64,000 nucleotides of DNA. It comes from Candidatus Aminicenantes bacterium. Its GTDB lineage: Bacteria; Acidobacteriota; Aminicenantia; Aminicenantales; Saccharicenantaceae. Made by a program: the position numbers and the translations under genes. This document shows, piece after piece, positions 38,205 through 63,483 of the stretch (positions within the stretch are counted from its first letter, which is position 1; every line of letters starts with the position of its first letter). The DNA is taken from NCBI GenBank assembly GCA_963773685.1, contig CAVZBY010000002.1, positions 274,038 through 338,037 of the forward strand, given 5' to 3'. The notes under the pieces are model-generated. The model was not told the origin of the DNA and searched no databases. It was given only the letters and a program-made list of their open reading frames with translations.

Positions 38205-38440
38205 GGCGTGTCAATCTTTTGATACGGATGTCAATTATATTTAACATTGCCCGCCCCTGTCAAGCGCCCGAAAGCCCGCTCGTTCCGTATCCAAATATCC
38301 GTATCGGCTGTAAACGGATGCCCGGCCGTTTTACATGATTCCGCATTTTCGGCCCGGTCCCTTCCCCTGTATCGATGGCACGTCTTTTGCAGAGGGGAGA
38401 TGCGCATCATCTCAAAGTCTATCGGATACAGGAGGCTGAT

Positions 38441-41225
38441 ATGTTCAAACGATCGTGCGTTCTGATCCTGCTCCTGGCCGCGGTAGCGGCGGCGGGATGG
38501 GCGCAGCTCGCCCAGACCGGCTCCATCGTCGGCAAGGTCAGGGACGCGCAGGGAGCGCCGCTTCCGGGCGTCGAGGTCGTCCTCAGGTCGCCCGCCATCA
38601 TCGTTTCCCAGATGGCGACGGTGACGAATGAGAACGGCGGCTATCGATTCCCGTCGCTTTCGCCGGGGATCTATGAGCTGACCTTCACGCTCTCCGGATT
38701 CAATACGCTCGTCCGGAAGGAGATCAAGGTCAGCATCGGCCAGACGGCCTCGATCGACGCGGCCCTGGACGTCAAGACCCTCGAGGAACAGGTGACCGTC
38801 ATCGGGCAAGCCCCGGCGGTCGATCTCAAGACGACGACCAAGAACATCAACCTCGAGACGGCCTTCCTGAGCTCCATCCCGGCCGTCCGCGACCTGGCCA
38901 CGTTCGTCAACATGACCCCCGGCTTCACCTCGGACACGTCCCACGGGAGCTCGGTCCGGGACAACACCTACAATCTCGACGGGGTCAACCTGGGCGATCC
39001 GACCGTCGGGACGCAGGCCGTCTTCTTCGGGCTCGACCTGATGGAGGAGATCTCCGTCCAGTCCGGCGGCCTCTCGGCCGAGTACGGCGGCGTCCGGGGC
39101 GCCATGATCAACGTCGTCAGCAAGTCCGGAGGGAACCAGTTCAGCGGCGCGGCGTCCTTCTATTACCGGAACGAGAAGTTCCAGTCGAAGAACACCGCCG
39201 GCACGCCCCTCGAAGGGCGGCTCAGCGGCTTCAAGTACGAGATGGAGCCGATCTTCGATCTCGGCGGGCCCATCCTCAAGGACAAGCTCTGGTTCTTCAT
39301 GAACCTCAGCTTCTCCAAGAACCAGACGTACGTGGACGGCTTCCCCTACGACAAGACGGCCAACACGCCCGTGGACAGCTACATGCCCTATCCGTACATC
39401 AAGTTCAGCTTCCAGCCCGATCAGGGGAACAAGTTCATCCTTTCCTATAATTATTCCGACATCAAGTACACCAACCGTTTCGCCGACAGGTTCCAGACCG
39501 AGGACACGACCGTCAAGCAGGTCACGCCGACCCACGTCTTCAACTTCCAATGGACGCGGTTCTTCTCGAGCGACCTGTTCGCCAACCTGCGGGTCGGCTA
39601 CGTCAAGTCCGACTTCAACATGCTGGCCAAGACCGCGCTCCCGAACCTCTACGAGGTCACGACCGGGAACGTCTCGGGAAGCTACGGCAACGACGACCTC
39701 AACAAGAGGGACCGGCTCCAGATCAACGTCGACGCGACCCGGTTCATCGACGGGCTGGCCGGCTCCCACGAGCTGAAGTTCGGCGGGGAGTTCATGTACT
39801 CCTGGAGCTACTGGGGCCTGCATTGGAAGACCGATCCGCAGGAACGGCATGTCCTCCATCAACACCTGGGGCGGCGAGCCCTGGTACGGGACCTATTACG
39901 CGGACCTCGACAAGCACGAGAACACGATGAACTCCGCCGCCTTCATCAACGACTCCTGGACGCTCAATAACCGTCTGACGCTGAACCTGGGCCTGAGATT
40001 CGAGCACCAGCGCGGCATCATCCCTCCCCAGAACCAGGGCGAGGGGGAACAGAGCCTTTACGGCTACACCTACAATCGCAGCGTGACCAAGAGCCTGACG
40101 CCCCTGAAATGGACCACGCTGGCCCCGAGACTGGGCGGGATCTTCGACCTCACGGGAGACGGGAAGACCCTGGTCAAGGCCAGCTTCTCCCGCTACTACG
40201 CGGCCAACCTCACCCAGTGGTTCTCCTACCTCAATCCTAACGACTTCGTTGTGGCGCTGGACATGCTGAATCCCGACTGGTCCCGGGCCGACACGCCGTT
40301 CTATCATTTACGTTCCCGGCAGCAACACGGCCGGATACGGGGACCATAAGCTGAAGAACCCGTACATCGATGAGTTCACGATCGGCGTCGAGCGCGAGGT
40401 CATGACCGATCTTTTCGATGGGCGTCCGCTACATCAAGAAATGGGACAGGAACCTCATCGAGGACGTGAACGCCAACATGCTGGACATGGACGCGCTGAT
40501 GGACCGGGGCGAGCTCATCTGGAAGAACTGGGAGGCCGTCACGGTGACGGACCCCTATGACGGGAGCACGCAGACGTTCTACAGCCAGACGGCCTTCCCG
40601 GCGGCCGTCTATTACACCGTCAATCCTCCCGGCGCGGAGCGGAACTACGACGGCTTCGAGGCCACGCTGAACAAGAGGTTCTCCGGGAGATGGGGCCTGT
40701 CGGTCTCCTACACCTATCAGAATTCCCGGGGACTCATCGGAACGGATTTCAACGACAGCTACGGCGCCCGCGGCTATTTCGACGACCCCAACTGAGCACA
40801 CGAACGCGTTCGGGCACATGAACCTCGAGCGCCCGCATCAATTCAAGGTCCAGGGCATGGTCAAGGGGCCCTGGGGGATCATGGGCAGCTGCTATTACCG
40901 GTACCTGTCCGGTCAGCGCTACACGCGGAAGATCAACAGCACCGATCTCGGCCTTGATCTGGGCCAGGGGGACACGACCATATACGCGGAAAAGCGCGGG
41001 TCCCGCGGACTTCCGGCCTTCAACGTTCTCGACCTCCGGCTGGAAAAGACGGTCCGCCTCAGGAGACTCGCCCTGAGCGTGTTCGTCGACGGCTTCAACG
41101 TCTTCAACGCCAACAAGGCGACCGGGGTGGAGGACCTGTCGGGCAACGCAAGCCGGGTCTTCGGAGAGATGACCGCCATCCAGAACCCGCGCATCTTCAG
41201 GCTGGGGGCGAAGTTCGAATTCTGA
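38441..41225 (+). CDS. TonB-dependent receptor with a carboxypeptidase-regulatory-like domain (TBDR #2), about 4 frame shifts near 39840, 40310, 40400 and 40795
   Basis: Signal peptide MFKRSCVLILLLAAVAAAGWAQ, GSIVGKVRDAQGAPLPGVEVVL..NGGYRF..LSPGIYEL. The body is spread over ORFs 38375..39970, 39849..40349, 40418..40795 and 40818..41225 and ends ..RLGAKFEF*. Confidence 0.7.
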
Positions 41226-41250
41226 TCTGACCTATATAGATCCTTTTCGC

Positions 41251-41283
41251 GGGAGAGGGGCGACGATAAGTCGCCCTTCTCCC
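41251..41283 (+). terminator. strong stem-loop after TBDR #2 (perfect 14-bp stem GGGAGAGGGGCGAC-GATAA-GTCGCCCTTCTCCC)
   Basis: Starts 26 nt after the stop codon. There is no clear U-tract, so it may be a partial terminator or RNA-stability element. Confidence 0.45.
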
Positions 41284-41348
41284 GTTCCTCCAACCTCTCG
41301 AACGGCTCCCCTTTAACGTTCCCGGACCTCGCGCGCGGGCCGGTCCGA

Positions 41349-41377
41349 TTGACAACGGGCGCAGGGCGGGATACGAT
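41349..41377 (+). promoter_or_regulatory. sigma70-like promoter candidate (TTGACA, 17-nt spacer, TACGAT) for the TPR-protein gene
   Basis: Sequence match about 40 nt upstream of the 41414 start. Confidence 0.3.
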
Positions 41378-41413
41378 AAATCCGTTAGAGCATGTCATCA
41401 CAGGAAGGATAGG

Positions 41414-42352
41414 GTGAGCCTCATGAGGAACGATCGCTCTCGTCTTGCGGCATGGGCTTTGGTCGCGGCCGTGCTATTCTGCGTCCAGAACCTGCCGGGC
41501 CCGGTCCAGGGCACGGTCAAGGGCGTGATCAAGGACAAGAAGGGAAATCCCCTCGAGGGCGCCAAGGTCACGGTCGTATCCATCCTGTACTCCGCCGTGA
41601 GGTACACGCTCAAGACCAATGCCAAGGGGGAGTTCATCCAGATCGGCCTCCAGCCCGACTACTATCAGATCAAGGCCGAGAAGGACGGGTTCCTGCCCTG
41701 CGTTCACGGAGAAGCACGTCGGCATCCAGGACATCGTCGAGGTCGTTCTGGAGCTCGAAGAAGGCAAGTACTTCATCGGGGCAGTCCCCGGGGGACAAGG
41801 ACTTCAAGCTGGGCAATGAGCTGTTCGTGGCCGGGAAATACGCCGGAGGCCGCGGAGGCCTACAAGACCGCCATCGGCAAGGAGCCGGGGGAGCCCGTCT
41901 ATTACGGCAATCTCGGATCGAGCTACCTGAAGCTCGGGAACATCGACGAAGCCCTGGCCGCGTTCAAGAAGATGCTCGAGGTCCAGCCGGAGAGCTATAG
42001 CGCGAATAAGAACATCGGCGAGATCCTCGGGGCCCAGAAGAAGTACGAGGAGGCGCTCCCGTACTTCCAGAAGGCCTCGGAGCTGAGCACGTCCGACCCG
42101 GACGCCTTCTACAATCTCGGGGCCTGCCTCGTCAACCTCCAGGACTACGAGAAGGCGGCGGCGGCCTTCACCAGGGCGATCGAGCTGAAGCCGGACCTCG
42201 CCCCGGCTTATTATCAGCTGGGGATGATCTACGTCAACCAGAACAAGAAGCCCGAAGCCATTCAGAACCTGGAAAAGTTCGTCGAGCTCGCGCCCGACGA
42301 TCCGAACGCCGCCGTGGCCAAGCAGATCCTGGCGTTCCTGAAATCGCAGTAG
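41414..42352 (+). CDS. carboxypeptidase-regulatory-like domain plus TPR-repeat protein, 2 frame shifts near 41700 and 41830
   Basis: Signal peptide, then GTVKGVIKDKKGNPLEGAKVTVVS..TNAKGEF..LQPDYYQIKAEKDGF, then a TPR run (..EAYKTAIGKEPGEPVYYGNLGSSYLKLGNIDEALAAFKKMLEVQPES..AFYNLGACLVNLQDYEKAAAAFTRAIELKPD..YYQLGMIY..). Confidence 0.5.
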   Translation: MSLMRNDRSRLAAWALVAAVLFCVQNLPGPVQGTVKGVIKDKKGNPLEGAKVTVVSILYSAVRYTLKTNAKGEFIQIGLQPDYYQIKAEKDGFLPCVHGEARRHPGHRRGRSGARRRQVLHRGSPRGTRTSSWAMSCSWPGNTPEAAEAYKTAIGKEPGEPVYYGNLGSSYLKLGNIDEALAAFKKMLEVQPESYSANKNIGEILGAQKKYEEALPYFQKASELSTSDPDAFYNLGACLVNLQDYEKAAAAFTRAIELKPDLAPAYYQLGMIYVNQNKKPEAIQNLEKFVELAPDDPNAAVAKQILAFLKSQ

Positions 42353-42379
42353 GCCGCGGGCGGGACCGAGGAGAGGACG

Positions 42380-44140
42380 ATGACCGGACAAGGACGGAAT
42401 TGGGCGCTCTGGCGTTGATCGTCGGAGGGGCGTTCCTGTCCGCCGGCCCGGCTCCGGCCGCGGCGGCCGCGGCGCACCGGGCCCCGGCGCCGTCCAGGAA
42501 GCGAAGAAGGCCGAGCAAGCGCCCGGCCCTCTCCGAGAAATACAAGAAGTGGCTGGACGAGGAGGTCGTCTATATCATCTCCGAGAACGAAAGGGACGTC
42601 TTCCGCAGTCTGCGGACCGACGCCGAGCGCGAGAACTTCATCAAGATGTTCTGGAAGCGGCGCGACCCGACGCCGGAGACCCCGATCAACGAGTTCCGCG
42701 AAGAGCACTACCGGAGGATCGCCTTCGCCAACGACACGTATTTCGAGGGGAAGGCGGGCTGGCGATCGGACCGGGGAAGGGTCTATATCATGTTCGGCCC
42801 GCCGGATTTCTTCGAGACGAACCCGGGCGGGGGAAGGGGCTTCCTCCTGGGGACCAACGCGCCCACCGCCGAGTTCCCGTCCGAGGTCTGGACCTACAGG
42901 GAGATCCCGGGGCTCAAGCTCCAGGAAAGCCGCGTCGATTTTACGTTCGTCAATTATTACGCCGCCGGGCTCCTACCAGCTGACGGACAACCCGGCCCTG
43001 GCCAACGCGCTCCGGAACATTTCGGTCCCCGCTCGCTACGCCGGATACAACGACTACCCGAGGGACAATAACTGATTCACCCCGACCGAGATCGCCGGAA
43101 GGTCCCAGAAGCCTACAAGCAGCCGCTCCAGCAGCTCCAGCTGATGGCCGAGCTGACCAAGTCGCGGGGAGAGGTCCTCGAGGAGCTCGAACGGAGCTCC
43201 CGGCAGAGGAAGCTCAAGGGGATCGTCGAGTCCAAGGCCTCGGTGAGCGCCTTGGCCGTCGTCTTCGAAGCAAAGCTTCCTCCGCGGATCGAACGGGATG
43301 ACCTACGTGCCCATGGTCCTCGAGGTGCCGGCGAAGGACGTGGAGTTCCGTCCCGTCAAGGACAGGTACCAGGGCCTCGTCAACTTCTATATCGAGGTGA
43401 AGGACGCGGACGGGCCGGTCTTCCAGAAGAGCGACAGGCTGGAGATGAACCTCAAGGAGGACAGCTACCGGCGAAGGGTCGCGGAGAACTATCAATATCT
43501 CCAGGGCGCGAGCCTGAAGCCCGGCCGGTACTTCCTCCACCTGGTCGTCTGGGACGAGATGAGCGGCAAGGTCGGCTATTCGGACCGCTGGATCGACGTG
43601 CCGGACATGGCGTCCGGAGAATTCGGCGCGAGCGATATCATCCTCGCCCGCGACATCCGGAGGCTCGAGGAGAAGACGCCGGAGGTCACGATCGACACGA
43701 AGGACCTCCCGGCCATGAAGACGCTCCGGACGACGGACCTCAAGGTCCCCGACAAGATGAGCATGCGCGGCCGCGGGGCGGCCCTTACACCTTCGGAGAT
43801 CTGGACGTCAATCCCGGCCATGACGCTCGGTCTATGCCAAGGGCGACGAGCTGGCCTATTTCTATCAGATCTACAACGCGACCTTCGATGAGGCCCTCGG
43901 CGTCGCCCGACTCCGGATCGAGGAACGGATCCTCAAGGGCGGCCAGACGGCCGCCGAGATCGCGCGATTCCGGCGACTTCCAGGTTCCGATCGCCCGCAA
44001 GACCGAGCAGGGGGATCAACCGGGGCAACCGGTTCCGCTTGCCGGACCTGGCCCCGGGGAAGTACGAGCTTGTCGTCCGGGTGAGGGACATCTTCTCGGG
44101 GAAGACCTCCGAGAAGAGGGCGGCATTCGAAGTGAAGTGA
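42380..44140 (+). CDS. GWxTD-domain protein #1 (Acidobacteria-type), several frame shifts
   Basis: GAGGAGAGGA ribosome-binding site. ..EKYKKWLDEEVVYIISENERDVFRSLRTDAERENFIKMFWKRRDPTPETPINEFREEHYRRIAFANDTYF..KAGWRSDRGRVYIMFGPPD.. contains the eponymous GWxSD motif. The pieces are collinear with GWxTD #2, and the gene ends ..ELVVRVRDIFSGKTSEKRAAFEVK*. Confidence 0.5.
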
Positions 44141-44215
44141 ATCCAGAAAAACGAATCCAATTCAAATTATTGGATAGTTCCCGTCGGCATGAGCCTTCCC
44201 GAGTCATTCTACTTA

Positions 44216-44232
44216 AATATTATGATATCATC
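44216..44232. promoter_or_regulatory. palindromic Fur-box-like operator candidate (AATATTATGATATCATC) in an AT-rich island about 250 nt upstream of TBDR #3
   Basis: TATGATATCAT is an 11/12 palindrome and resembles the TGATAAT half-sites of Fur boxes. It sits in an unusually AT-rich 160-bp stretch in front of a TonB-dependent receptor. Confidence 0.25.
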
Positions 44233-44472
44233 CACTTAGTCTCGAGTTCCAATGGCCATCACGGGATGGCACCGAACTTGCATAATACCGTAGGACAGGA
44301 AGGTATCTTGACAGGGGAGGAGTATACAGCCGACAAACCATGCAGAGAGCTCGGAAGGGCGGAGCGCCGTGCCCGGCATGGCTCTCCCGAGGGATTCCCG
44401 CGAGGCGGGAAGGAGCTTCGCGGGAGGGGGAAAACAACAAGATCCCATGACCATGGGATTCGGAGGAGTTGA

Positions 44473-47400
44473 ATGACCTTAAGAAAGCTGTCTTTTGTCT
44501 GTGTCGCTTTTCTTTTGGTGGCTTCTCTCGGAATGGCCCAGTCCAAGGATACGGGGAACTTCGTCGGGACCGTTTATCGACGTCGAGGGGGCCCCGCTCC
44601 CGGGCGTCACGGTTACGGCGAAGAACATCCAGATGGGCCTGGTCCAATCGACCGTGACCAACGACAGCGGGCGAGTACCGGATCGAGAGGCTGCCCCGCG
44701 GAATGTACACGCTGACCGCGGCCATCCAGGGCTTCAAGACGACGACCCGGGAAGGGCTCGAGCTCTCGATCGGCGGCCGAGAGTCAAGGTCAACTTCAAC
44801 CTGGAGATCGGAAAGCTCGAGGAGAATATCACGGTCATCGGCGTTTCGCCTCTGGTCGAGACGACGCGCGCCCAGGTCTCCACCGTCATCACCGAGAAGG
44901 AATTCCTGAGCTATCCGCAGGGCAACCGTGACTACACGTCCCTGATCGCCTACGCCCCGGGGACTTTGCCCGGCGCCGGCCGTTCCGGCTACGCGGTCAA
45001 CGGGATGCGCGGCTCTTCGAACAACTTCCAGATCGACGGCATCGACAACAACGACAACGGCACGGCCACCAATGCCGTGACGAGCATGCCGCCCGAATCC
45101 ATCCAGGAGTTCCGCCTGGTTTCCAACAACTTCTCGGCCGAGTACGGCCGGAACTCCGGCGGCGTCATCAACGCCGTCATGAAGTCCGGGACCAACGAGT
45201 TCCACGGCAGCGCCTGGATCTTCCATCGCGGGGGCAGCGCGCTGTTCCAGAGCGAAGACTGGCTGACCCACGACCTGCCTCCCTACAAGAGGTACCAGTA
45301 CGGCGCGACGGTCGGCGGCCCCATCATCAAGGACAAGACGTTCTTCTTCGCCTCGTTCGAAGGCGTCATCCAGGACGACGAGGCCCGGACGCCGCAGACT
45401 GTTCTTCACGCCGGAAGCCATCGCGCGGGCCCGGGACCGGCCAAGACTTACTTCGACAAGTACGGCTCCACCTATCCCAAGCCGACATACGATTTCGTCG
45501 ACATCGACGGCGACGGCCTCGTCGACGCCGGCAAGTATGTCTGGGACGGGACGACCAAGACCCGAGGCTACAACTTCGGCCTCAAGATCGACCACATCTT
45601 TTCCGAAAAGGACCGTATAGCCGTCCGCTGGCTCTTCAACACCTATAATTACGAGTGGGATTTCGCCGCAGCTTCCCGGTATCGTCAAGAAGAATCCCTA
45701 TTCCTATCACACCGGCGGCTTGACCTGGCTGCACCTCTTCAGCCCGACCACGTACAACGAAGTCCGGATCGGCTATCACCGGGACTACGCGGATTGGCCG
45801 CGGCTCGCCCCCGAGGTTCCGTCGATCGGCGGCTATTCCTTCGCCGACGACGTGACCGTCATCGGCGACTACCCGAACATGCCGCAGAAGTTCGCCAACA
45901 ATACCTATCAGCTGGTGGACGTCCTGAACTTCCAGGTCGGCAACCACAGCATCAAGCTCGGCGGCGAGGCCAGGCTCTGGAATTCGGACTCGACGTTCGA
46001 CGCCAACGTCGCGGGGAGCTTACTATTTCATCGATTCGACGTGGTTCCTCTATGACCTCGGCGCCTATTACCTTGTCATCGGGGCTGACCCGCCCAATCC
46101 GCCCGAGGGCAACCCCTACGTCACCGGCGCCGCCAGCGGCGAATGGAAGACCTGGCGATTCCCATCGGAAATGGCAAGGCTTCGAAGGCGGCCTGTTCGT
46201 CCAGGACGACTGGCGCGTGACGGACAAGCTGACCGTTTCCTTGGGCCTGAGATGGGAATACTACGGGGTCCCCAAGGAAAAATCCGGAGTGGGCATCAAC
46301 ATGCCCGCTTTCGGGACCAAGGCCGGCTTCGATGCGAACCCGAAGCAGATCATCGAAGGGAAGTTCGGCGAAGAGGGGATCAAGTACCTCATTTTCGACG
46401 GACGCCAGCAGCTCGGCAAGGGATTGTGGAATCCCTATTACAAGGCCTTCGCTCCCAAGGTCAGCTTCGCTTACGACCTGACCGGCGACGGCAAGACGTC
46501 GCTTCGGGCCGGGGCGGGCATCTCGTACGACCGGACCTTCAATAATACGTACGAGAATGACCGGTTCAACTATCCCGACTTCACGTTCGCGTCGATGGGC
46601 GGAGGGTACGGGTACGGCACGCCGTACATCAACGTCACTTATCCCGGGACCGTTCCCGCGGCGAACATCCAAGGATACAGGGCCGCCCTGCGCTGGATGC
46701 TGCCCGACCTCCTGCCTCAGAAGGCATATAACTGGCTGGTCGGCGTCCAGAGAGAGCTTTCGACGAACGTCTCCATCGAGCTCAACTACACCGGCTCCAA
46801 GGGCATGAACCTGGGCTCCATCCAGAGGCCGAACCGCTTCACCGGGGACAGGCTGGACGGGATCGCGGACGGGATCAACGCGTACACGGCCATCCGCGAC
46901 CTCAACCTGCGGACCCAGAACCTGAAGTCCGACTACTCCGCCTTCACGGCGACCATCAACAAGAGGTTCGCCAACGGCTGGTCCTGGTACACGGCCTACA
47001 CCTACGGCATCGCCAAGGACCAGAACTCCGACTATTTCGGGAGGCGACACGCGGAGCGGCACCGTCATGGAAGCCGTCTCCAACGAACGGATCGGCGACG
47101 AGTACGGCTACGCCCAGTTCGACCGTCGGCACAGGGTCGTCGGCGGCATGATCTTCGACATGCCCTTCTTTAAGAACTCCAAGAACTGGTTCCTGAGGAA
47201 CGTCGTCGCCGGCTGGCAGGTCTCCACCAATTTCCACTTCACCTCCGGCGCCGGCCGTTCACCATCAGGTCCACCTCGTCCTCCTACGATTGGAACAAAG
47301 ACTACGACTACAACGACAGGCCCCTGTGGATCGGACGGAGACAACTACCAGGAGCTCATCACTTGGACGAACGGACAGGCCCGGCTGGGACAAGAGCCTG

Positions 47401-47707
47401 TTCGCGTTCCCGGTTGCCCCGACGGCCGCCAGAGATCTCTCCTACTACGATCAGAATTTCGTCGCCGAGGAACTCGTTCCGGTGGTTCCCGACCCATAAC
47501 ATCAACATCTCCCTGCAGAAGTACTGGACGGTCCCCATGGCCGGGAGGGAATTCACGGTCCAGGCCATCTTCGAGGTCTTCAACGTCCTCAAGTCCTACT
47601 TCTGGGACCTTCCGTCCACGACTCCTGGACGTCCGCCCTGTTCGGCCAATCGCTGCGGATGAGCGGCCAGAGGACAGTCTCAAGTCTCGCTCCGGATCAT
47701 GTTCTAA
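44473..47707 (+). CDS. TonB-dependent receptor with a carboxypeptidase-regulatory-like domain (TBDR #3), many frame shifts
   Basis: Signal peptide MTLRKLSFVCVAFLLVASLGMAQS, ..IDVEGAPLPGVTVTAKN.., ..YRIERLPRGMYTLTAA.. (the CarbopepD_reg domain appears in shifted frames), plug and barrel blocks across at least 6 frames, and a C-terminal ..SLRIMF* aromatic end. Confidence 0.65.
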
Positions 47708-47734
47708 GGTTCACGCGCGCACACGAGCTCACAA

Positions 47735-47772
47735 GCCCTGCCCCGGCTTCGCCGGGGCAGGGCTTTTCTTTT
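47735..47772 (+). terminator. rho-independent terminator (GCCCTGCCCCGGC-TTCG-GCCGGGGCAGGGC plus TTTTCTTTT)
   Basis: Perfect 12-13 bp GC stem followed by a U-run, 28 nt after the TBDR #3 stop. Confidence 0.7.
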
Positions 47773-47815
47773 GAGGCGATTTGAAGCCATGAGCGGAGTC
47801 TGATATATTTTCAAT

Positions 47816-49960
47816 ATGGTGCGAGGCGGATCTGCACGGCCGGCATCGGTTTCTTTCTGCTCTTCACGGGCTCGGGGGCCCCGGGCCTCGCGGGCGGCGC
47901 AGGGCGAGATCCAACAGGGACGGGAAGCCTCAACGTCCTGCTCGTCACCCTGGATACGACGAGAGCCGACCATATCGGGGCCTACGGCTGGAGCAAGGCG
48001 AGGACCCCGAACCTCGATTCGCTGGCGGCCGGGGGGGTCAGGTTCGCGAACGCTTATTGCCCGGCGCCCGCTGACGCTCCCTTCCCATTGTTCCATCCTG
48101 ACGGGAACCTATCCTCTGTACCATAAGGTCCGCAACAACGGCTCCTACTATCCTGGCCCCGGAGGCCGTGACCCTGGCCGAGAGGCTCCGGGACCGGGGG
48201 TTCCGGACGTCGGCCTTCGTCGCCTCGTTCAACGTCGATTCCCGGTTCGGCGTGGACCAGGGTTTCGCCGTGTACGACGACCGTTCGACGACGACCAGAT
48301 GCTCAAGACGTTCCGGTCCGAGCGCAAGGCCGACAAGGTCGCCGACGCGTTCATCGGCTGGCTGGGGGCGAACGCCGGGAGCCGGTTCTTTTCCTGGGTC
48401 CATTTCTTCGACCCCCATATGCCCCACGATCCGCCCTCGCCCTATAAGGAGGAATTCGCCGGCGACCTCTACGACGGCGAGGTCGCGTTCGTGGACCACG
48501 AGCTGGGGCGGGTCATCGAGGCCCTGCGGGCGAAGGGCATCCTGGAGAGGACGCTCGTCGTCGTCGCCGGCGACCACGGCGAGGCGCTCGGCGAGAAGGA
48601 AGAGCTCGACCACGGCATCTTCATCTACGACGGGACGATGAAGGTCCCGCTGATCTTCTACGCGGACAAGCGCCTGCCCGGCGGGACGGGTCGTCGATGC
48701 CAGGGTCAGGCTCATCGATCTCATGCCGTCGGTGCTGGACATGATCGGGATCCCGGTGAACAAGGAGGTCCAGGGGACGAGCCTCATGCCCTACATCGAA
48801 GGCAAGAGGGACGACGACCTGCCCTGCTATCTCGAGTCCTACTATCCTCCGGAGACCTACGGCTGGTCGGAGCTTCGAGGCCTCGTCGACGGGGACTGGA
48901 AGTTCATCCGCGCCCCCCGTTCGGAGCTCTACGACCTGAAGACGGACCCGAAGGAGGAGAAGGACCTCGTCGCGCGCGAGGCCGGGACGGCCGCCCGGCC
49001 TCAACAGGAAGCTGGACGAGATCATCAAGGCCTACACTTCGAAGACGGAAGCCGGGCCGGAGGACGCTGACCCGGGAGGAGGAGGACCGCCTGCGGTCGC
49101 TGGGCTATATCGGGGCCGGATGCGTCGGTCAAGGTCGGGAAGGGCCCGCTTCCCGATCCCAAGGACCGGATGGACGAGTTCAAGATCCTCTTCAAGGCGA
49201 AGCTTCTGGAGTACCAGGGGGAACTTCACGGAGTCGGAGAAGTGCTATCGGGAGCTCCTCCGCCTCGAGCCGGACGTGTCCTGGCACTATATCGGGCTGG
49301 CCATCCTCCTGGCGAGGGACCGGAGGGTCGGCGACGGCATCGAGGTCCTGAAGGGCGGGCTCCGAAGACTGCCCGATTCGACGGTCCTGATGTCGCGGCT
49401 GGCCAGCTTCTACATGAGGGTCGGGAACTTCAAGGAGGCCTTCGCCATGAGCCAGGCCACCCTGAAGCGCGACCCGCGGCATCTCGACGCCTTGGTCATC
49501 GCCGGCTGGTCCGAGGACATGCAGGGCCGACTGGAAGGAATCGGCCGGGTATTTCGGGAAGGCCCTGAAGATCGAGCCGGAGAACAAGTACATCCGGCTG
49601 AAATATGCCTATGCCCTGGGGGCCCTCGGCCGGGGAGAGGAGGCCGCCCGGATCGACGAAGCTCTCAAGAAGGAGTATCCCGACGACCATCGGGTCCATG
49701 CCGACCTCGGCGATCATCTACGCGTCGATGAACAGGCTGGACCTGGCCGAGGAGAACCTGCGGAAGGCCGTCGAGCTCGAATCCCGGGCCCGATTCCTAT
49801 CTGAGCCTGTGCGGCGATCCTCGAGCGGACGGGCAAGCTCGAGGACGCCATCGCCTATCTGAAGCTGTTCCTCGAGACGTCGAAGGAAGGCGAAACGCCC
49901 CGGATCAACAAGGCCCGAAAGGCCCTCGCGGAATGGGAGCGGCGGATCAAAGGGCGATGA
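47816..49960 (+). CDS. sulfatase-family (alkaline-phosphatase superfamily, Thr-nucleophile type) domain fused to C-terminal TPR repeats, paralog #1, several frame shifts
   Basis: ..LNVLLVTLDTTRADHIGAYG.. (metal-binding DxxxD), ..LTLPSHCSILTGTYP.. (the sulfatase Cys/Ser position is Thr and the Arg is His), ..VVAGDHGEALGE..HG.., then TPRs (..CYRELLRLEPDVSWHYIGLAILL..). It ends ..EWERRIKGR* and overlaps the next start (ATGA). Confidence 0.65.
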
Positions 49961-52067
49961 GGCTCCCGGCGCTCCTCCTCGTCCTCGCCCTGCCGTCCGG
50001 CGCGTCCCGGGTCTTCTCCGCCGCGCGGCAGGGAAGAGGGCGACCCGAACGTCCTTCTCGTGACCCTCGACACGACGCGGGCGGACCACATCGGGGCCTA
50101 CGGATACGCGAAGGCCCGGACGCCGGTCCTCGATGCCCTGGCCCGGAACGGCGTCCGCTTCGCCAACGCTGTATTGCGCGACGCCGCTGACCCTCCCTTC
50201 GCACTGCTCGATCCTCACGGGGACCTATCCGCTCCGGCACAAGGTCCGCAACAACGGGTCCTATTATCTCGGAGACGATGCGGTGACGCTGGCCGAGAGG
50301 CTCAAGGAGAGCGGATACGACACCGCCGCGTTCGTCGCTTCGTTCAACACCGATTCGCGGTTCGGGCTCGGCCAGGGGTTCGACGTCTACGACGACCAGT
50401 TCCTCGAGGACGAGCTCCTGAAGGCGTTCAAGTCCGAGAGGACGGCCGACAAGGTCGCGGACGCGTTCATCTCCTGGCTGGGGGCGAAGCCCCGGGACCG
50501 CTTCTTTTCCTGGGTCCATTTTTTCGATCCCCATGCGCCTTATGAGCCTCCCGCGCCCTATAAAGAAAGGTTCGCCTCCGACCCCTATGACGGCGAGATC
50601 GCCTTCATGGACCACGAGCTCGGGAGGATCATCGAGGCCTTGAAGGCCAAGGGCCTTCTCGAGCGCACCCTGATCGTCCTGGCCGGAGACCACGGCGAAT
50701 CCCTGGGCGAGCACGGGGAGAGCGATCACGGCATCTTCATCTACGACGCCGCGATGAAGGTCCCTCTCGTCCTCCATGCCCCGGGGGCCCTTCCGCGGGG
50801 GACGGCCGTGGGCGCGCGCGTCCGGCTTATCGACATCATGCCGACCGTCCTCGATTGGCTGAAGGCGGGCGTGAATCCCGAGGTCCAGGGGACGAGCCTC
50901 CTGCCCTTCATCGAGGGGAAGAGGAAGGATGACCTGCCCTGTTACCTCGAGACCTTCTACCCGAGGGAGACCTTCGGCTGGTCCGAGCTCGTGGGGCTCG
51001 TCGATGCGGACCGGAAGTTCATCCGGGCCCCCCGTTCGGAGCTCTACGACATCGAAAAGGACCCCGGAGAGCTGAAGGACCTGGCCTCGAGGGAATCCCG
51101 GACGGCCACGGCCCTCAACAAGAAGCTCGACGAGGTCATCCGCGCCCACGTCTCGAACGCGGAACCGGGACGCAGGACCGTGACGGGGGCCGAGGCCGAC
51201 CGCCTGCGCTCCCTGGGCTACGTCGCGGCGGGCGCGGCCCCGACGTCCGGGAAAGGCCCTTTGCCGGACCCGAAGGACAAGATCGGGGAAAACGCCATCC
51301 TGTCGCGGGCGCGGCTCCTGGAAGCGGAGGGCAAGTACGCCGAATCGGAAAAGGAATATCGCGACCTGCTCCGCCTGCGGCCCGAGGTGCCCTGGAACTA
51401 CATCGTCCTGGGCCTCCTGCTGGCCAAGGCCGAGCGGGCGGACGAGGGCATCGAGGTCCTGCAGGACGGCCTGAGGAGGATACCGGATTCGCTCGACCTG
51501 CTCTCGAACCTGGCCGAGCTCCTATATGAGGGCCGGCAAGTTCCCCCAGGCTTCCGAGACGAGCCGTGATGTTCTGAAGCGCGACCCCCGGAATTTCGAC
51601 GCGATGGTCATCGCGGGCTGGTCCGAGGACATGCTCGCCCATTGGACGGAGCGCGGCCGGCTTCTACCGCATGGCCTTGGAGGTCGAGCCGGAGAACAAG
51701 ACCCTCCGGATGAAATATGCCTATGTCCTGGGCGCCCTGGGCCGGGGCGACGAGGCCGCCGGCCATGGATGAGGCGCTCAAGAAGGAGTATCCGGCGGAC
51801 CCGAAGATCCGGACCGATCTCTCGGTCATCTATACGGCCCTGGGGAAGATGGACCTGGCGGAGGAGAACCTCCGGAAGGCGGTCGCCCTGAGCCCGACGC
51901 CCGAGAATCATCATCGGCTGGCCTCGCTCCTCGGCCGGGTCGGAAAGCTCGAGGAGGCCGTCGTCCAGATGAAGCTCTATCTCAGGACGACCAAAGAAGG
52001 GGAGACGCCCCGGAAGGCCCGCGCCCGCGAGGCCGTCGCGGAATGGGAAAGGCGGATATCGAAATGA
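49957..52067 (+). CDS. sulfatase-family domain plus TPR fusion, paralog #2, several frame shifts
   Basis: MRLPALLLVLALPSGAS.., ..VLLVTLDTTRADHIGAYG.., ..LTLPSHCSILTGTYP.., ..VLAGDHGESLGEHGESDHGIFIY.., TPRs (..EYRDLLRLRPEVPWNYIVLGLLL..), ends ..EWERRISK*. Confidence 0.65.
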
Positions 52068-54174
52068 AGAGGCGCTGGGCCTGTCCTGGCCGTCGCGGTC
52101 CTCGCCGCGGGGGGACCGCTTCCCGGGAGCGCCGCGGGCGACGTGAAACGGGAGGAAGGGCTCAACGTCCTCCTCGTGACCCTGGACACGACGAGGGCCG
52201 ACCGTCTCGGCGCGTACGGATATGACAAGGCCCGGACGCCCGCCCTCGATGCCCTGGCGAAGAACGGGGTTCGGTTCGCGAACGCTTATTGCGAGGTCCC
52301 GATGACCCTGCCCTCGCACTGTTCCATCCTCACGGGAACCGGTCCGCTCTACCACAAGGTCCATAACAACGGGACCTATTACCTCAACAAGGACATCGTC
52401 ACCCTGACCGAGAGACTCAAGGCCAAGGGGTATGCGACGGCGGCGTTCGTCAGCTCGTTCAACGTGGACTCCCGCTTCGGCGTCGGGAAAGGGTTCGATG
52501 TCTTCGACGACCGGTTCCGCGACGACGAGATGATGAAGACCTTCCGTTCGGAGAGGCGGGCGGGGGAGACCACGGCGGCCTTCCTCCGCTGGCTGGACGG
52601 GCGGGGGGACGGACCGTTCTTCTCATGGATCCATTATTACGACCCCCATACGCCCTATAAACCCCCGTCGCCGTTCCGGGAACAGCTCGCTCCGACCCGT
52701 ACGACGGCGAGATCGCCTACATGGACGAGTGCTTCGGGAAGGTCCTGGCGCGGCTCCGCGAAAAGAACCTGCTCGAGCGGACGCTCATCGTGGTCGCCGC
52801 CGACCACGGCGAGGCCTTTGGAGAGCGGGGGGAGCTGGGTCATGGCGTTTTCATCTACGACGTCACGATGAAGGTCCCGCTCCTCATCCACGCCCCCAAG
52901 AACCTTCCGGCGGGCCTGGTCGTCGCGTCGCGGGTCAGGCTCATGGATATCATGCCGACCGTCCTGGACGCGCTGAAGATGCCCGCGGGCAAGGAGGTCC
53001 AGGGGACGAGCCTTCTGCCCTACATCGAGGGTCGAAGGAAGGACGATCTTCCCTGCTACATGGAAAGCTATTATCCGCTGGAGACCTACGGCTGGTCCGA
53101 GCTGGTCGGCCTCGTCGACGGCGACTGGAAATTCATCCGCGCCCCGCGGCCCGAGCTCTATGATCTCAAGTCGGACCCGGCGGAGATGCGGGACCTCGTC
53201 CAGAAACAGGCGGGGCGGGCCTCGGGCGATGATGCGCGAGCTCAAGGACATGATCGCCGCGTCCGCATCCGACCTCGGCCAGAGCCGGAGGAAGCTCAGC
53301 CGGGAAGAGGAGGAGCGCCTGAGGTCTCTCGGCTACGTGGGGAGCGACGCTTCGGTCCGTGTCGGCAAAGGCCCGCTTCCCGACCCCAAGGACATGATGT
53401 CCGAGTTCCAGATCCTCTACCGGGCCAAGACGAACGAATGGGACGAGAAATGGGACGCCGCGGAGAAGGATTACCGGGAGATCCTCCGCCTCCAGCCCGA
53501 CGTCGCCTGGCGTTATGTCGACCTGGCGATCTTCCTGACGATCCGGGACAGGCTCCCCGATGCCATCGAGGTCCTCAGGCAGGGGCTGGCGCGGATGCCG
53601 GATTCCTTCGTCCTCCTCACGCGGCTCGCCCATCTGGAGATGGGTGCGGGCCGATACGACGAGGCCTACGAAATGAGCCAGGCGGCCCTCCGGATCGACC
53701 CCGGGTATTTCGACGCCCTGGTCATCGCCGCCGGGGTCGAGGACGTCCGCGGCCATTGGGAGGCTTCCGAAAAGGATCTACCGGCGGGCCCTCGCGGTCG
53801 AGCCCGAGAACAAAAAGGTCCGGATGAAGCAGGCCTATCGCGCTGGGAGCCATGGGGCGGGGAGAGGAGGCCGTGAAGATCGACGAGGCCTTGAAGGCGG
53901 AATACCCCGACGACTCCCGGCTCCGCCAGGACCTGGGCGTGATCTACGCCGACCTCGGCCGATGGGACCTGGCCGAAGAGAACATGAGGAAGGCCGTCGA
54001 GCTCCAGCCGTCGCCCGAGACCTGGTTCAACCTCGCGTCCGTCCTCGAACAGGCGGGGAACCTCGCCGAGGCCGTCCGCTATCTCAGGCTCTACATCGAG
54101 AAGACCACGGAGGGCGAGACGCTCCGCAAGGCGAACGCCCGGAAGGCCCTGGCCGATTGGCAGAGGCGCGCTGA
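52064..54174 (+). CDS. sulfatase-family domain plus TPR fusion, paralog #3, several frame shifts (3' end approximate)
   Basis: MKRRWA then a frame shift, then ..LNVLLVTLDTTRADRLGAYG.., ..MTLPSHCSILTGTGP.., ..VVAADHGEAFGERGELGHGVFIY.., TPRs (..DYREILRLQPDVAWRYVDLAIFL..), ending ..LADWQRR. The true stop is masked by a frame change within 54170..54215. Confidence 0.6.
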
Positions 54175-54223
54175 AGCCGCCGGAGGGCCCGTGACCGATA
54201 ATCGGAAAACCATGGAGGTTCAG

Positions 54224-55668
54224 ATGAAAACAAAAGGTCATCGTCCTGGCGACCCTGCTCGTCGTCGGTCTCGCCGGGCTCGTCCCGAGCGCGTCCGCGG
54301 CGAAGAAGGAGCCGGACAAGTACGAGAAGTGGCTCAAGGAAGAGGTCCCGCTCCTCATCCTTCCCGAAGAGAAGGCCGAGTTCGAAAAGCTCAAGACGGA
54401 CGAGGACAAGGACCGGTTCATCGAGCTGTTCTGGGCCAAGAGGGACCCGTCGCCCAACTCCAAGGTCAACGAGTTCCGGGACGAGTGGATGGCGCGGCTC
54501 GCGCACGTCACCAAGGCCTATGCGGCCGGCGTCGGGCCCAAGGGCTGGCGCTCGGATATGGGCAAGGTCTATCTGTTCTTCGGGCCCCCGGCCCAGGTCC
54601 AGGGAGGGGCGACCGGGGTGAGGCGCGAGTCCACGGAAGGGTCCCAGATGGATGCCCCGTCCGAGACCTGGGTCTATCCGCCGATGCCCGACCTCAGCCT
54701 GACCGACCAGTTCCCGATCATTTTCCGGAACTATCAGTTCGGGTACGAGCTCGACCCGGCGACCCCCCAGAAGATCCGCCGGGCCATGGAGGTCTTCCCC
54801 AAGGTCGTCGTCTTCAACCCCGACCTCAAGGAACTGCCGATGTACAAGTACGTCCTGGACGAGAATTCTCTCGGAGGGCAAGATGATCCGGGACTTCATC
54901 GCGACCGGGAACGAGATCAAGGGAATCGCCCTCGAGTGGGCGCCGATTTACACCCGGGCCATGGGCGGCAGCACGTATGTCTCCCTGCTCGTCCAGGTCG
55001 ACCCGGGGACCATCGACCGGAAGAAGCTGAAGGAAACGACCTTCTTCGGCCGTCTCAAGGGCGACGGCGAGGAGGTCCAGGACTTCCTGACGACGGTCCG
55101 GGTCGAAAAGGAGAAGGCCGACAAGCTGGTCATGGTCTTCGGCTTCCCCGCCAAGCCCGGAAGGTCGGTCCTCTATCTCGGCGCGGAGGACAAGGACAAG
55201 GAGAACCCGACCCTGCTCAAGGCCGACTTGGACGTCAAGGATTTCTGGAAGGGCGAGCTCGATACGAGCTCCCTCATCCTCAGCTCCGAGGTCGTCTCCA
55301 AGCCCAAGGAAGAAGCGGCCGGGGAATTCAGCCCCTACGTCACGAGCGATTACCGGGCCACGCCACGATGGGGAAGCGTCTTCCGGGCGAACGAGGACCT
55401 GAGCGTCCTGTTCCACATCTACAACGCCGCGTTGCAGAACGGCGAGGTCGATCTGATCGTCGACTACTTCATCATTTCGGCCGAGGTGGGCTTTCGGCTG
55501 AATCCGCAGACGATCCGGGCGAAGGTCGAGGAGAACCAGGCCGTTGCCGGAGGAACCCAGGTTCCGCTGTCCCCGCTCAAGCCCGGAAAATACACGTTCA
55601 AGATCAAGATCACCGACAAGATCGCCAACAAGACGATCGATCGGACCACGGAATTCGCGGTCGAATAA
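54224..55668 (+). CDS. GWxTD-domain protein #2, 2 frame shifts (in the aaaacaaaa homopolymer at the start, and near 54880)
   Basis: MKTK then a frame shift, then ..VIVLATLLVVGLAGLVPSASAAKKEPDKYEKWLKEEVPLLILPEEKAEFEKLKTDEDKDRFIELFWAKRDPSPNS..GPKGWRSDMGKVYLFFGPP.. (the GWxSD motif). It continues in ORF 54883..55668. Confidence 0.6.
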
Positions 55669-55679
55669 GGGGGGAGCCG

Positions 55680-56288
55680 ATGAAACGAAACTTCCCGGTG
55701 TTGGCCCTTTGCGGACTGGCGGTCCTGGCCGCGGCGTGCGCGACCGTCGCCCCGGCGGGGACGGGGGGCGAGGCGTCGCGGGCGGCGACGTTCAGCTACA
55801 AATGGGAGGACACGAACCTGGCGATCGTCCTGGACGTCGAGCTGGCCCGGAGGCGCACGGACGAAGCCTATTTTCCCCTGGGCATCAAGATCGCCAACAA
55901 GCGCCTGAATAGGATCATCGTCGACCGGGAGACGCTCTTCCTGGTCGATGAGAACGGGACCGTTTACCCGATGCCGTCGGTCGAGGAGCTGTCGCTCCAG
56001 TACAACAAGCTCGTCCCGGACAACAAGTTCAAGAGCCAGACCGGCGTCCTGGGGGACGAGATGATGACCGGATTCACGATGTACCGGAAGGCCGTCGGGA
56101 GGCTCTTCCCGCAGACCCAGGGCGGCGGACGGACCGTGGATTCCATCTACGTCCAGAAGAACGGCTACATGGAGGACCTCGTCTATTTCCCGATGCCCGA
56201 GGGCGGGATCAAGGGAAAGACCCTCAGGCTCAGGCTGGACGTCTATGAGCTGGGCAAGCCGCTCGATGTCGCGTTCCGCGTCGAATAG
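55680..56288 (+). CDS. putative lipoprotein / secreted protein of unknown function
   Basis: MKRNFPVLALCGLAVLAAACATVAP.. is a signal peptide with a lipobox-like AAAC. 202 aa, intact, 11 nt after GWxTD #2. No family recognised. Confidence 0.45.
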   Translation: MKRNFPVLALCGLAVLAAACATVAPAGTGGEASRAATFSYKWEDTNLAIVLDVELARRRTDEAYFPLGIKIANKRLNRIIVDRETLFLVDENGTVYPMPSVEELSLQYNKLVPDNKFKSQTGVLGDEMMTGFTMYRKAVGRLFPQTQGGGRTVDSIYVQKNGYMEDLVYFPMPEGGIKGKTLRLRLDVYELGKPLDVAFRVE

Positions 56289-56354
56289 ACCTTCCCGAGC
56301 CTTGGCCGGGTCCTGGCGGCCGCCGGCGCGGCCGTCCTGGCCCTCGGAGCCTCG

Positions 56355-57167
56355 GTGCCGCCGGCCGGACAGGATCCGGCGGGGACGGAACCGGCGGCGT
56401 GGAGCCGGGAGGTCAAGGAGGATTTCCTGCGGACGGCGGAGATCGTCAGCACCAAGGTCATCACGGAGGGAACGACGCGGTCGGAGCGCGCCACCCTCCA
56501 GGACGCGCGGGGCGTCCATGACGCCCACATCCAGAAGATCGACGTGTCCGCGACCAAGTTCGAGGGCGTCGGGGGGCAGTGGGAGCTCAATTTCCGGGAC
56601 ACCTGTAAGTTCAACCTGGCCGCTTACATCCTGAACCGCCTCCTGGGGATGAACATGATCCCGCCGACGGTCGAGCGGAAGGTCGGCAAGCGGCCGGCGG
56701 CCGTGACCTGGTGGATCGACGATGTCCTGATGGATGAAAAGGAGCGGCTCGAGCGGGAGGTGCTCCCGCCGGTCCCGGAGAGGGACCGCTGGAACCGTCA
56801 GATCCATATCGTCCGCGTCTTCGACCAGCTCATCGCCAACAAGGACCGGAACATCGAGAATATCATCATCACCCGCAGCTGGGACGTCTGGATCATCGAC
56901 CACACGCGCGCCTTCCGCGCCTATAAGCAGCTCCTCAGCTCCGACGACCTGGTCCGTTGTGACCGGGTCCTGCTCGAGGCGATGCGCCGGCTGGACAAGC
57001 CGACCGTCGTCGAAAAGCTCGGGGCTTATCTTACGGACCTGGAGATCGACGGGATCCTGGCGCGTCGCGACAGGATCGTCCGGTTCTTCGACGCCAAGGC
57101 CGCCGGGGAAGGCGGGGATACCGTGCTGTTCGATTATCTCTCCGAGCGGAAGGTCGACGGACCCTGA
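56355..57167 (+). CDS. atypical protein-kinase-like (PKL/APH-type catalytic-loop) domain protein, probably exported. N-terminus uncertain
   Basis: ..VFDQLIANKDRNIENIIITRSWDVWIIDHTRAF.. resembles the D(L/R)xxxNI(L/I)(L/I) catalytic loop and the xIDFG/IDH activation segment of ePK/APH-like kinases. The in-frame upstream ..RVLAAAGAAVLALGAS.. looks like a signal-peptide h-region but lacks a start codon, so a frame shift or rare start is likely. Confidence 0.4.
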   Translation: MPPAGQDPAGTEPAAWSREVKEDFLRTAEIVSTKVITEGTTRSERATLQDARGVHDAHIQKIDVSATKFEGVGGQWELNFRDTCKFNLAAYILNRLLGMNMIPPTVERKVGKRPAAVTWWIDDVLMDEKERLEREVLPPVPERDRWNRQIHIVRVFDQLIANKDRNIENIIITRSWDVWIIDHTRAFRAYKQLLSSDDLVRCDRVLLEAMRRLDKPTVVEKLGAYLTDLEIDGILARRDRIVRFFDAKAAGEGGDTVLFDYLSERKVDGP

Positions 57168-57192
57168 AAGGAATGAACGGCGAGCCCCGCGC

Positions 57193-57456: not shown

Positions 57457-57521
57457 GGGACCACCGCCGATGGGCCCGGTTCTCCGCTCGGTTTTCCACG
57501 TTGTCCCTCACCTCACCGCGA

Positions 57522-59878: not shown

Positions 59879-59895
59879 AGCCCCGCCATCGTGGC

Positions 59896-59924: not shown

Positions 59925-59949
59925 CCCCATCTTCGCGAAAGGAGCGTCC

Positions 59950-63444: not shown

Positions 63445-63483
63445 GCCCCGAGCCGATTCAGGACGTGGGCAGGCGACGGTCCG

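Follow-up and report, generated by a model that had tools for sequence, protein, structure and literature searches.

Gene content and order of the locus

The locus described here occupies positions 38441-57167, on the + strand, of a 64-kb stretch of DNA (the window, 64,000 nucleotides in full) from a Candidatus Aminicenantes bacterium. It encodes two TonB-dependent-receptor-like outer-membrane proteins (TBDR_A and TBDR_B), a protein that joins a CarboxypepD_reg domain to tetratricopeptide repeats (CPD-TPR), two GWxTD-family proteins (GWxTD_A and GWxTD_B), three tandem sulfatase-fold enzymes with C-terminal tetratricopeptide repeat (TPR) arrays (Sulf-TPR 1 to 3), a lipoprotein (p202) and a kinase-like protein. 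The window has a GC content of ~64%, and codon-position GC is therefore a dependable frame signal; tracking of third-position GC (GC3), together with a seven-state frame hidden Markov model, detected many + strand frame switches between 38.4 and 57.2 kb. Pfam and NCBIfam scans were run on stop-to-stop fragments, and gene spans were set from these scans and from frameshift-aware alignment to the proteins of a relative, locus L086. The gene families and their + strand order proposed in a first-pass annotation of this DNA were borne out by both approaches. In the following list, identities are at the amino-acid level.

38441-41225, +: TBDR_A, TonB-dependent-receptor-like outer-membrane protein, ~926 aa (CarboxypepD_reg, Plug and OMP_b-brl_4 by Pfam); 89% identity to the 926-aa L086 ortholog, dN/dS 0.16 (frameshift-aware alignment); four one-nt insertions, at 39839, 40305, 40411 and 40793
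41423-42352, +: CPD-TPR, secreted CarboxypepD_reg and TPR protein, 308 aa (Pfam); 94% identity to L086, dN/dS 0.08; +1 insertions at 41696, 41775 and 41845, the three together restoring the frame
42380-44140, +: GWxTD_A, ~582 aa (TIGR04514, PF20094); 87% identity to L086, dN/dS 0.20; 10 frame shifts
44473-47707, +: TBDR_B, TonB-dependent-receptor-like (CarboxypepD_reg, Plug and OMP_b-brl_4 by Pfam); 88-89% identity to the two halves of the L086 ortholog; 14 frame shifts
47789/47816-49960, +: Sulf-TPR 1, secreted alkaline-phosphatase-superfamily (sulfatase-fold) enzyme with C-terminal TPR array (Pfam Sulfatase, SGSH_C, TPR); 83% identity to the 718-aa L086 ortholog, dN/dS 0.26; 13 frame shifts; the ATG at 47816 is probably the true start
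49957-52067, +: Sulf-TPR 2, ~705 aa (Pfam); 80% identical to protein P0002; 5 frame shifts
52064-54194, +: Sulf-TPR 3, ~707 aa (Pfam); 84% identity to L086; 5 frame shifts
54224-55668, +: GWxTD_B, ~481 aa, N-terminal GWxTD domain and two Ig-like beta-sandwich domains (TIGR04514); 93% identical to ortholog P0147, dN/dS 0.23; 1 frame shift (54871-54873)
55680-56288, +: p202, 202-aa lipoprotein; 87% identity to L086 p202, dN/dS 0.20; no frame shift
56245-57167, +: secreted or membrane-anchored kinase-like protein, 308 aa, with DRNxGN ... IDH motifs (weak NCBIfam matches); 1 frame shift near 56299-56314

The Plug and barrel of TBDR_B were recognized by Pfam (Plug 2.4e-8, OMP_b-brl_4 1.9e-75, TonB_dep_Rec_b-barrel 8e-8), while TBDR_A gave barrel matches with Plug only at 0.0029; the orthologs of these receptors in loci L081, L085 and L086 are likewise annotated as Plug plus barrel. 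The 202-aa lipoprotein had no Pfam match, and its ortholog carries the lipobox LASGC. The kinase-like protein matched neither Pfam nor any PDB sequence, its weak NCBIfam matches being to the SCO1664 family (37.5 bits) and to Kdo kinase. Inspection of ortholog sequences by eye, with no predictor, identified signal-like N-terminal segments on all products in addition to the lipobox of the 202-aa protein, in agreement with the earlier proposal that every member is exported or envelope-associated. The 4-nt ATGA overlaps claimed between Sulf-TPR 1 and 2 and between Sulf-TPR 2 and 3 were confirmed at 49957-49960 and 52064-52067.

The locus had also been described as a set of duplicated cassettes. 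This description holds only for the three closely related Sulf-TPR genes, which are 60-64% identical to one another; the receptor and GWxTD pairs are ancient paralogs, with 24-33% identity between TBDR_A and TBDR_B and 25% between GWxTD_A and GWxTD_B. Judged from these identities, the paralogy of the receptors and of the GWxTD proteins is old and that of the three enzymes younger, and recent cassette duplication was rejected because the TBDR and GWxTD paralogs are only 24-33% identical.

Conservation of the neighbourhood

A homolog search with one long open Sulf-TPR fragment returned a database entry 100% identical to it, which means that the source assembly is publicly available, and many full-length homologs of ~705 aa. 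The protein P0002 lies on contig_6389 of ENA assembly ERZ25039513, which corresponds to loci L081 and L086. On this contig all 11 genes recur with their order unchanged, and TBDR_B, split once, is the only one interrupted; the products measure 926 (TBDR), 308 (CPD-TPR), 582 (GWxTD), 427 plus 651 (TBDR), 718, 705 and 707 (Sulf-TPR), 481 (GWxTD), 202 and 308 aa. Beyond the last 308-aa gene it continues with convergent PilZ genes, a PAS-GGDEF-EAL gene and an S9 peptidase gene. A second locus from the same ENA sample, L085, is 93.4% identical in DNA to window positions 44135-64000. The locus belongs to an Acidobacteriota lineage whose named relatives are Candidatus Aminicenantes. In the window, the two PilZ genes (57196-57453 and 57525-57821, - strand) are convergent to the locus and stand beside a GGDEF/EAL gene; they are kept in L081 and L085 and form a cyclic di-GMP (c-di-GMP) signalling pair.

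We then surveyed more distant genomes, seeding with Sulf-TPR and taking one genome per GTDB species. Seventeen loci with TPR-fused Sulf-TPR orthologs were recovered, almost all of which adjoin a CarboxypepD_reg-type TBDR; Sulf-TPR occurs in tandem, as two or three copies, at most of them, CPD-TPR is encoded at many, and six have GWxTD genes. GWxTD genes were present at 0 of the 63 loci with non-orthologous sulfatases. Looking up distant GWxTD proteins (30-43% identity; loci L082, L087 and L088) led back to the same neighbourhood, since all three adjoin a CPD-TBDR, a CPD-TPR and a second GWxTD(-TPR) gene, two of the three with Sulf-TPR and two of the three with TonB and an M1 peptidase. The flanks of these distant loci are unrelated housekeeping genes, which bounds the module. 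No TonB_C gene was found in the window's own locus; one is adjacent in L082 and L087. A homolog of the 202-aa lipoprotein follows GWxTD_B in L002. Outside the window, the kinase-like protein turned up in L081 and L085 alone, both of them close relatives.

The co-localization of these families, whose absence from other genomes the first-pass annotation had named as refuting its proposal, is found in distant Acidobacteriota genomes from both the Sulf-TPR and the GWxTD directions, and we hold with high confidence that the cluster is real and conserved across Acidobacteriota. The annotation was aware of no described system that combines these parts, and the literature searched, which was queried for Acidobacteria together with sulfatase, TonB and TPR, yielded none either.

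Two further genes were noted near GWxTD genes. In L082 (10928-11965) and L087 (10981-12018), a conserved 345-aa secreted protein that has no Pfam domain and no detectable similarity to window proteins always follows a short (302-319 aa) lipoprotein GWxTD. In addition, a 1,198-aa Sortilin/BNR-repeat protein is encoded at 29711-33307 (- strand), ~5 kb upstream of the locus, and its full-length homolog at L001:15880-19128 (33% identity) lies <1 kb from a GWxTD gene; this linkage may be coincidence, or the protein may be a loosely linked partner.

Promoters, leader and terminators

The intergenic regions of the locus contain the following elements.

38376-38391, +: predicted sigma-54 (-24/-12) promoter TGGCACGTCTTTTGCA, exact TGGCAC-N5-TTGCA, 50 nt upstream of the TBDR_A start
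41251-41283, +: GC-rich hairpin after TBDR_A, gggagaggggcgac-gataa-gtcgcccttctccc, without a T tract (read from the sequence)
41349-41377, +: sigma-70-like promoter TTGACA-17-TACGAT before the CPD-TPR/GWxTD_A pair (consensus match only, 10/12)
44156-44174, +: palindrome TCCAAT-N7-ATTGGA, ~93 nt upstream of the second sigma-54 promoter
44267-44282, +: predicted sigma-54 promoter TGGCACCGAACTTGCA, exact consensus, 190 nt upstream of TBDR_B
44283-44472, +: GC-rich TBDR_B 5' leader of ~190 nt, possibly structured, >90% conserved relative to L081 and L085
47733-47765, +: intrinsic terminator after TBDR_B, 15-bp stem with 12 GC pairs and a T tract (terminator scan)

Sites were called as sigma-54 promoters when a -24 TGGCAC and a -12 TTGCW element were separated by 5 nt, lay upstream of a gene and were conserved. 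The window contains two perfect TGGCAC-N5-TTGCA sites against 0.01 expected, and both precede TBDR genes. The element before TBDR_A is identical in L086, where it stands amid less conserved intergenic DNA, and the element before TBDR_B is kept in L081 and L085. Across the 1.3 Mb of fetched loci, a relaxed form of the motif matched eight times, six of them directly upstream of a GWxTD-locus TBDR; these six include sites in the distant loci L001, L082, L083 and L084. Based on motif and conservation, both TBDR genes appear to lie behind conserved sigma-54 promoters. The TCCAAT-N7-ATTGGA palindrome falls in a block that is conserved in L081 and is a candidate site for an enhancer-binding protein.

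The TBDR_B leader has equivalents at L081:4352-4545 and L085:140-333, while the DNA just upstream is not conserved. RNAalifold predicted a fold of -55.8 kcal/mol with a long-range helix and a 12-bp hairpin, supported by a few compensatory (both-sided) changes, and Rfam gave no family match. The leader could be a cis-regulatory RNA, three close relatives being too few to judge. Between 37 and 59 kb, Rfam returned nothing credible, its sole match being sub-threshold and over the terminator. Regarding the terminators earlier assigned after both receptor genes, the one following TBDR_B is strong, while the hairpin following TBDR_A lacks a T tract and was not called by the scan.

Sulf-TPR enzymes carry threonine at the nucleophile position

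Sulf-TPR 2 matched Pfam Sulfatase (PF00884) at 3.7e-32 and SGSH_C at 5e-14, fragments of copies 1 and 3 matched too, and weak matches to Phosphodiest (PF01663) were obtained for these enzymes at 1e-9. In a solved-structure search, the P0002 motif T-L-P-S-H-C-S-I-L-T-G aligned on the formylglycine motif of the S1 sulfatase 6pt6, so that Sulf-TPR has Thr at the formylglycine Cys/Ser position and His at the Arg position (T-L-P-S-H vs C-x-P-x-R). T-L-P-S-H is common to all three L081 paralogs and to the distant L082 enzyme, and T81, P83, S84, H85, D41 and D247-H248 are invariant in 30 homologs. Threonine is not convertible to formylglycine; it is the nucleophile of phosphoesterases of the nucleotide pyrophosphatase/phosphodiesterase (NPP) type, whose motif, T-F-P-N-H-Y-S-I-V-T-G, closely resembles that of Sulf-TPR. 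Every copy carries a signal peptide or a lipobox, and none has the membrane domain found in lipid-dependent transferases.

Because of the Thr at the nucleophile position, the signal peptides or lipoboxes and the absence of a membrane domain, we predict that the Sulf-TPR enzymes are soluble periplasmic phosphoesterases rather than sulfatases. The first-pass annotation had left phosphoester and sulfoester substrates side by side, and the Thr leads us to prefer the former. Like type I (S1, formylglycine) sulfatases, the enzymes have PF00884 and SGSH_C domains, a metal-ligand Asp, and D-H-G and H-x-x-P-H motifs; they differ from them in the Thr nucleophile and the His for Arg within T-L-P-S-H-C-S-I-x-T-G, and in the C-terminal TPR array of ~300 aa. 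With NPPs and other Thr-nucleophile phosphoesterases they share the T-x-P-x-H ... T-G motif, secretion and the weak Phosphodiest matches. Their sequence overall is nearer to sulfatases, and neither TPR fusion nor tandem triplication is a feature of characterized NPPs.

GWxTD proteins and their link to TonB

Fragments of GWxTD_A and GWxTD_B scored 114 and 81.2 bits against TIGR04514 (cut-off 28), and 51.3 and 30.4 bits against PF20094 (cut-off 26.9). The pair thus scores well above the cut-offs and does not differ from the family, which is without an assigned function or a solved structure; literature searches with GWxTD, TIGR04514, PF20094 and IPR030959 returned no description. An AlphaFold2 model of P0147, the GWxTD_B ortholog (pLDDT 81.7), consists of an N-terminal alpha/beta domain followed by two Ig-like beta-sandwiches. 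The alpha/beta domain is novel as modelled, and a PDB sequence search with the GWxTD profile returned nothing useful and no solved structural relative.

A single-sequence search with the N-terminal fragment of GWxTD_B found only 13 proteins, mostly truncated, and we therefore used a profile, which recovered 11,455 members at E<=1e-3 among 1.84 billion representatives; clustered at 50% identity, the family comprises >11,000 sequence clusters. We picked ten long members in which the GWxTD domain is internal or N-terminal. Eight were BlaR1-type Peptidase_M56 proteins with GWxTD at the sensor position, and the other two were GWxTD-TPR fusions. Two of the M56-GWxTD proteins, P0253 and P0343, end in TonB_C, and such fusions provide an independent link between GWxTD and the TonB machinery. 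They resemble BlaR1/MecR1-type M56 transducers and M56-TonB_C fusions in that GWxTD elsewhere occupies the extracytoplasmic sensor position and is sometimes followed by TonB_C. The GWxTD proteins of the window differ in being free-standing and secreted, without M56 or TonB_C, and no BlaI-type repressor was seen.

A phosphoester-scavenging reading of the locus and its alternatives

Given the conserved co-localization and the purifying selection (see below), the earlier view of a lineage-wide envelope or nutrient-scavenging system built from poorly characterized parts is a reasonable one. We propose that the locus encodes sigma-54-controlled, TonB-powered uptake and periplasmic processing of phosphoester-bearing substrates, a reading drawn from sequence to which we give a probability of roughly 45%. 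A nutrient-limitation signal would cause an enhancer-binding protein to activate sigma-54 transcription of the transporters, which would draw on TonB energy to bring in an organic substrate bearing phosphoesters. In the periplasm, the Thr-nucleophile enzymes would then hydrolyse this substrate, and the TPR and GWxTD proteins would bind substrate or couple the enzymes to the transporter and TonB machinery.

The closest known kind of locus is a TonB-dependent utilization locus, from which this one differs in partners, enzyme chemistry and regulation. As in the polysaccharide utilization loci (PULs) of Bacteroidota, a TBDR with an N-terminal CarboxypepD_reg-like domain stands beside several secreted hydrolases, with helical-repeat (TPR-like) binding proteins and tandem paralogous enzymes. 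Unlike those PULs, the locus lacks a SusD homolog, a glycoside hydrolase and a sulfatase formylglycine motif, its partners are GWxTD and CarboxypepD_reg-TPR proteins, and its phylum is Acidobacteriota. Neither the Pfam scans of the locus nor the precomputed annotations for related loci contained a match to the SusD family. Bacteroidota PULs use hybrid two-component or extracytoplasmic function (ECF) control, whereas the window's locus has sigma-54 promoters.

Several observations weigh against our proposal. Sulf-TPR is missing from the GWxTD locus L087, and because of this absence the enzyme may be accessory rather than core. The phosphoester assignment is based on one residue class and on analogy with NPPs, and the N-terminal half of Sulf-TPR is closer in sequence to true sulfatases than to NPPs. 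An adaptor role for the GWxTD proteins is a guess that has no structural or functional precedent. No enhancer-binding protein (Sigma54_activat) was found among the scanned open reading frames (ORFs) of the window, and an activator encoded nearby was rejected on that ground. Finally, the two PilZ genes and the PAS-GGDEF-EAL gene immediately downstream, in the window as in L081 and L085, would fit another kind of system instead.

That system, which is the main rival to phosphoester uptake and which we regard as unlikely, is a machine for envelope biogenesis or remodelling. The Thr-enzymes would modify or trim a polymer of the periplasm or the surface, whether an exopolysaccharide, a lipopolysaccharide-like glycan or osmoregulated glucans, with the TPR proteins as secretion scaffolds, the barrels as conduits and c-di-GMP as the controlling signal. 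TPR scaffolds together with alkaline-phosphatase-superfamily modifiers are typical of exopolysaccharide systems, BcsC and BcsG being examples; the faint Kdo-kinase match of the kinase-like protein points the same way. However, lipid-donor transferases such as EptA, LtaS and BcsG use a multi-pass membrane domain, whereas the enzymes of the locus have signal peptides only. Genes for a glycosyltransferase, polymerase or flippase are absent from all the conserved loci, the distant loci do not share the PilZ and GGDEF genes, and the beta-sandwich matches are generic. The Plug domains of the barrels and the TonB gene adjacent in L082 and L087 argue for import.

A locus for the utilization of sulfated glycans, an acidobacterial analogue of a PUL with three true sulfatases, is improbable. 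The Pfam Sulfatase and SGSH_C domains would suit it, the best PDB sequence matches of Sulf-TPR are S1 sulfatases acting as carrageenan, glycosaminoglycan (GAG) and choline sulfatases, and TBDRs with an N-terminal CarboxypepD_reg domain resemble SusC. The C/S-x-P-x-R motif is nonetheless replaced by a T-x-P-S-H that is invariant in the family, and SusD, glycoside hydrolase, formylglycine-generating and anSME maturase genes were not seen in the locus or its relatives. The search for a formylglycine maturase (FGE/anSME) covered the window and the related loci.

Frame shifts in the locus

Frame shifts were counted by protein-to-DNA alignment that allows for shifts, using the L081/L086 proteins against the window. 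The heavy frame-shifting reported earlier for this DNA is real in the assembly: 56 shifts fall between 39839 and 56299 in the 11 genes, of which 48 are insertions of 1-2 nt and 8 are one-nt deletions. Most inserted bases are not beside an identical base, i.e. they lie mostly outside homopolymers. The only in-frame stop, at 47801, is doubtful, the true start of Sulf-TPR 1 probably being downstream of it. After frame correction the products are 79-94% identical to the L081/L086 proteins, and Nei-Gojobori dN/dS is 0.08-0.32 in every gene, whatever its shift load. The values are alike in the shift-rich Sulf-TPR 1 (0.26) and GWxTD_A (0.20) and in the shift-free p202 (0.20) and all but shift-free GWxTD_B (0.23), and these ratios indicate that the genes are under purifying selection.

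DNA alignment to L085 revealed ten extra bases in the non-coding stretch 44176-44500. The shifts that were compared sit at matching positions relative to both L081 and L085 and so look private to the window assembly. Split genes occur in L081 and L085 as well, both from one ENA sample, at other positions. Contrary to the claim that exactly this region is affected, shifts also occur at 58.0-59.9 kb (the GGDEF/EAL gene), at 62-63.5 kb and probably at 0.8-3.1 kb, with the highest density at 40-50 kb. Substitution divergence from L085 is ~10% in the 44-50 kb stretch, falls to 2-3% over 50-58 kb and rises again to 4-8% over 59-64 kb, a mosaic that suggests strain recombination or a chimeric strain consensus. 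The block most diverged from L085 is also the most frame-shifted, and we read the errors as clustering at places of difference between co-assembled strains. Long reads probably underlie the assembly, to judge solely by the contig naming that it shares with MFD metagenome-assembled genomes (MAGs).

We consider it very likely that the shifts are consensus errors of metagenome assembly and not biology, because nonsense codons are few, dN/dS is not relaxed and there is no deletion bias; a biological explanation of the shifting, which the earlier annotation wanted explained, is not supported. Programmed frameshifting was rejected since the 56 sites share no common motif. Genuine decay, in which the locus would be a run of real pseudogenes, is very improbable. 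In its favour, the shifts are denser here than in several neighbouring genes, and the stretch with most shifts, 44-50 kb, also shows the greatest divergence from L085. Yet there is at most one nonsense codon for 56 frame shifts, the dN/dS range is no different in p202 and GWxTD_B, and the 6:1 bias toward insertion is opposite to bacterial mutation, which is biased to deletions. Insertions occur in non-coding DNA too, the promoters, gene overlaps and terminator are intact, sister assemblies are shifted elsewhere, and unrelated genes outside the locus are shifted as well. The decay that the first-pass annotation had allowed for is thus not what we find.

Other frame anomalies were noted in passing. 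Two orthologs of GWxTD_B, P0121 and P0123, are truncated at ~165 aa and end in the same out-of-frame tail, RARPDD.PED.PG.GGLP...RRLQPRPQG; a frame shift shared by two assemblies could reflect either a systematic sequencing error at the site or shared ancestry. The PAS-GGDEF-EAL gene (58011-59860) contains three shifts (58056, 58099 and 58749), and the ORF at 58714-62769 is a frame-error fusion with the next gene, an S9 peptidase/beta-lactamase gene that starts at 59950. At 824-2932, a 703-aa ORF joins RNase_H_2/exonuclease to ADH_N, and the frame tracker switches four times between 792 and 3116; this is probably another frame-error patch that fuses two genes.

Discussion

Least probable of all the readings, to the point of being nearly negligible, is a locus for uptake of iron or siderophores under Fur control. 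In its favour, iron is the classical cargo of TonB-dependent receptors, and an AT-rich palindrome had been noted before TBDR_B as resembling a Fur box. Against it, the best match to the 19-bp consensus GATAATGATAATCATTATC is 10/19, NCBIfam siderophore-receptor models score far below their cut-offs, the conserved promoters are of sigma-54 type, and no siderophore biosynthesis or ABC-type iron-transport genes are present. Scores of at least 10/19 occur at ~550 window positions on both strands, and the match before TBDR_B is not conserved in L081; for these two reasons the Fur box was rejected.

The data also invite a broader and more doubtful proposal than phosphoester uptake, namely that a CPD-type TBDR, a CPD-TPR protein and two GWxTD proteins make up an undescribed TonB-coupled envelope machine of Acidobacteriota and related phyla, to which Thr-enzymes are often attached. 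GWxTD would be a new fold that docks the transporter or TonB, and sigma-54 would tie the machine to nutrient limitation. Within such a machine, GWxTD might either be a partner that captures substrate independently of SusD or carry signals across the envelope; the existence of M56-GWxTD-TonB_C fusions is a hint of the latter.

Acidobacteriota are among the most abundant soil bacteria, and to our knowledge the substrates and partners of their very many CarboxypepD_reg-type TonB-dependent receptors are essentially uncharacterized. Our analysis delimits a module of four families that recurs around such receptors, with the conserved sigma-54 promoters as a regulatory handle. It also re-assigns its "sulfatases" as probable phosphoesterases, ties GWxTD to TonB-linked functions and supplies concrete proteins for biochemical and structural work. 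For MAGs more generally, region-specific frame-shifting can and should be tested before decay is invoked, for which sequence alone suffices, through three measures: indel direction, the nonsense-to-frameshift ratio and dN/dS. If the proposed uptake and processing of phosphoesters is true, the module could be a route of organic phosphorus acquisition in soils and sediments.

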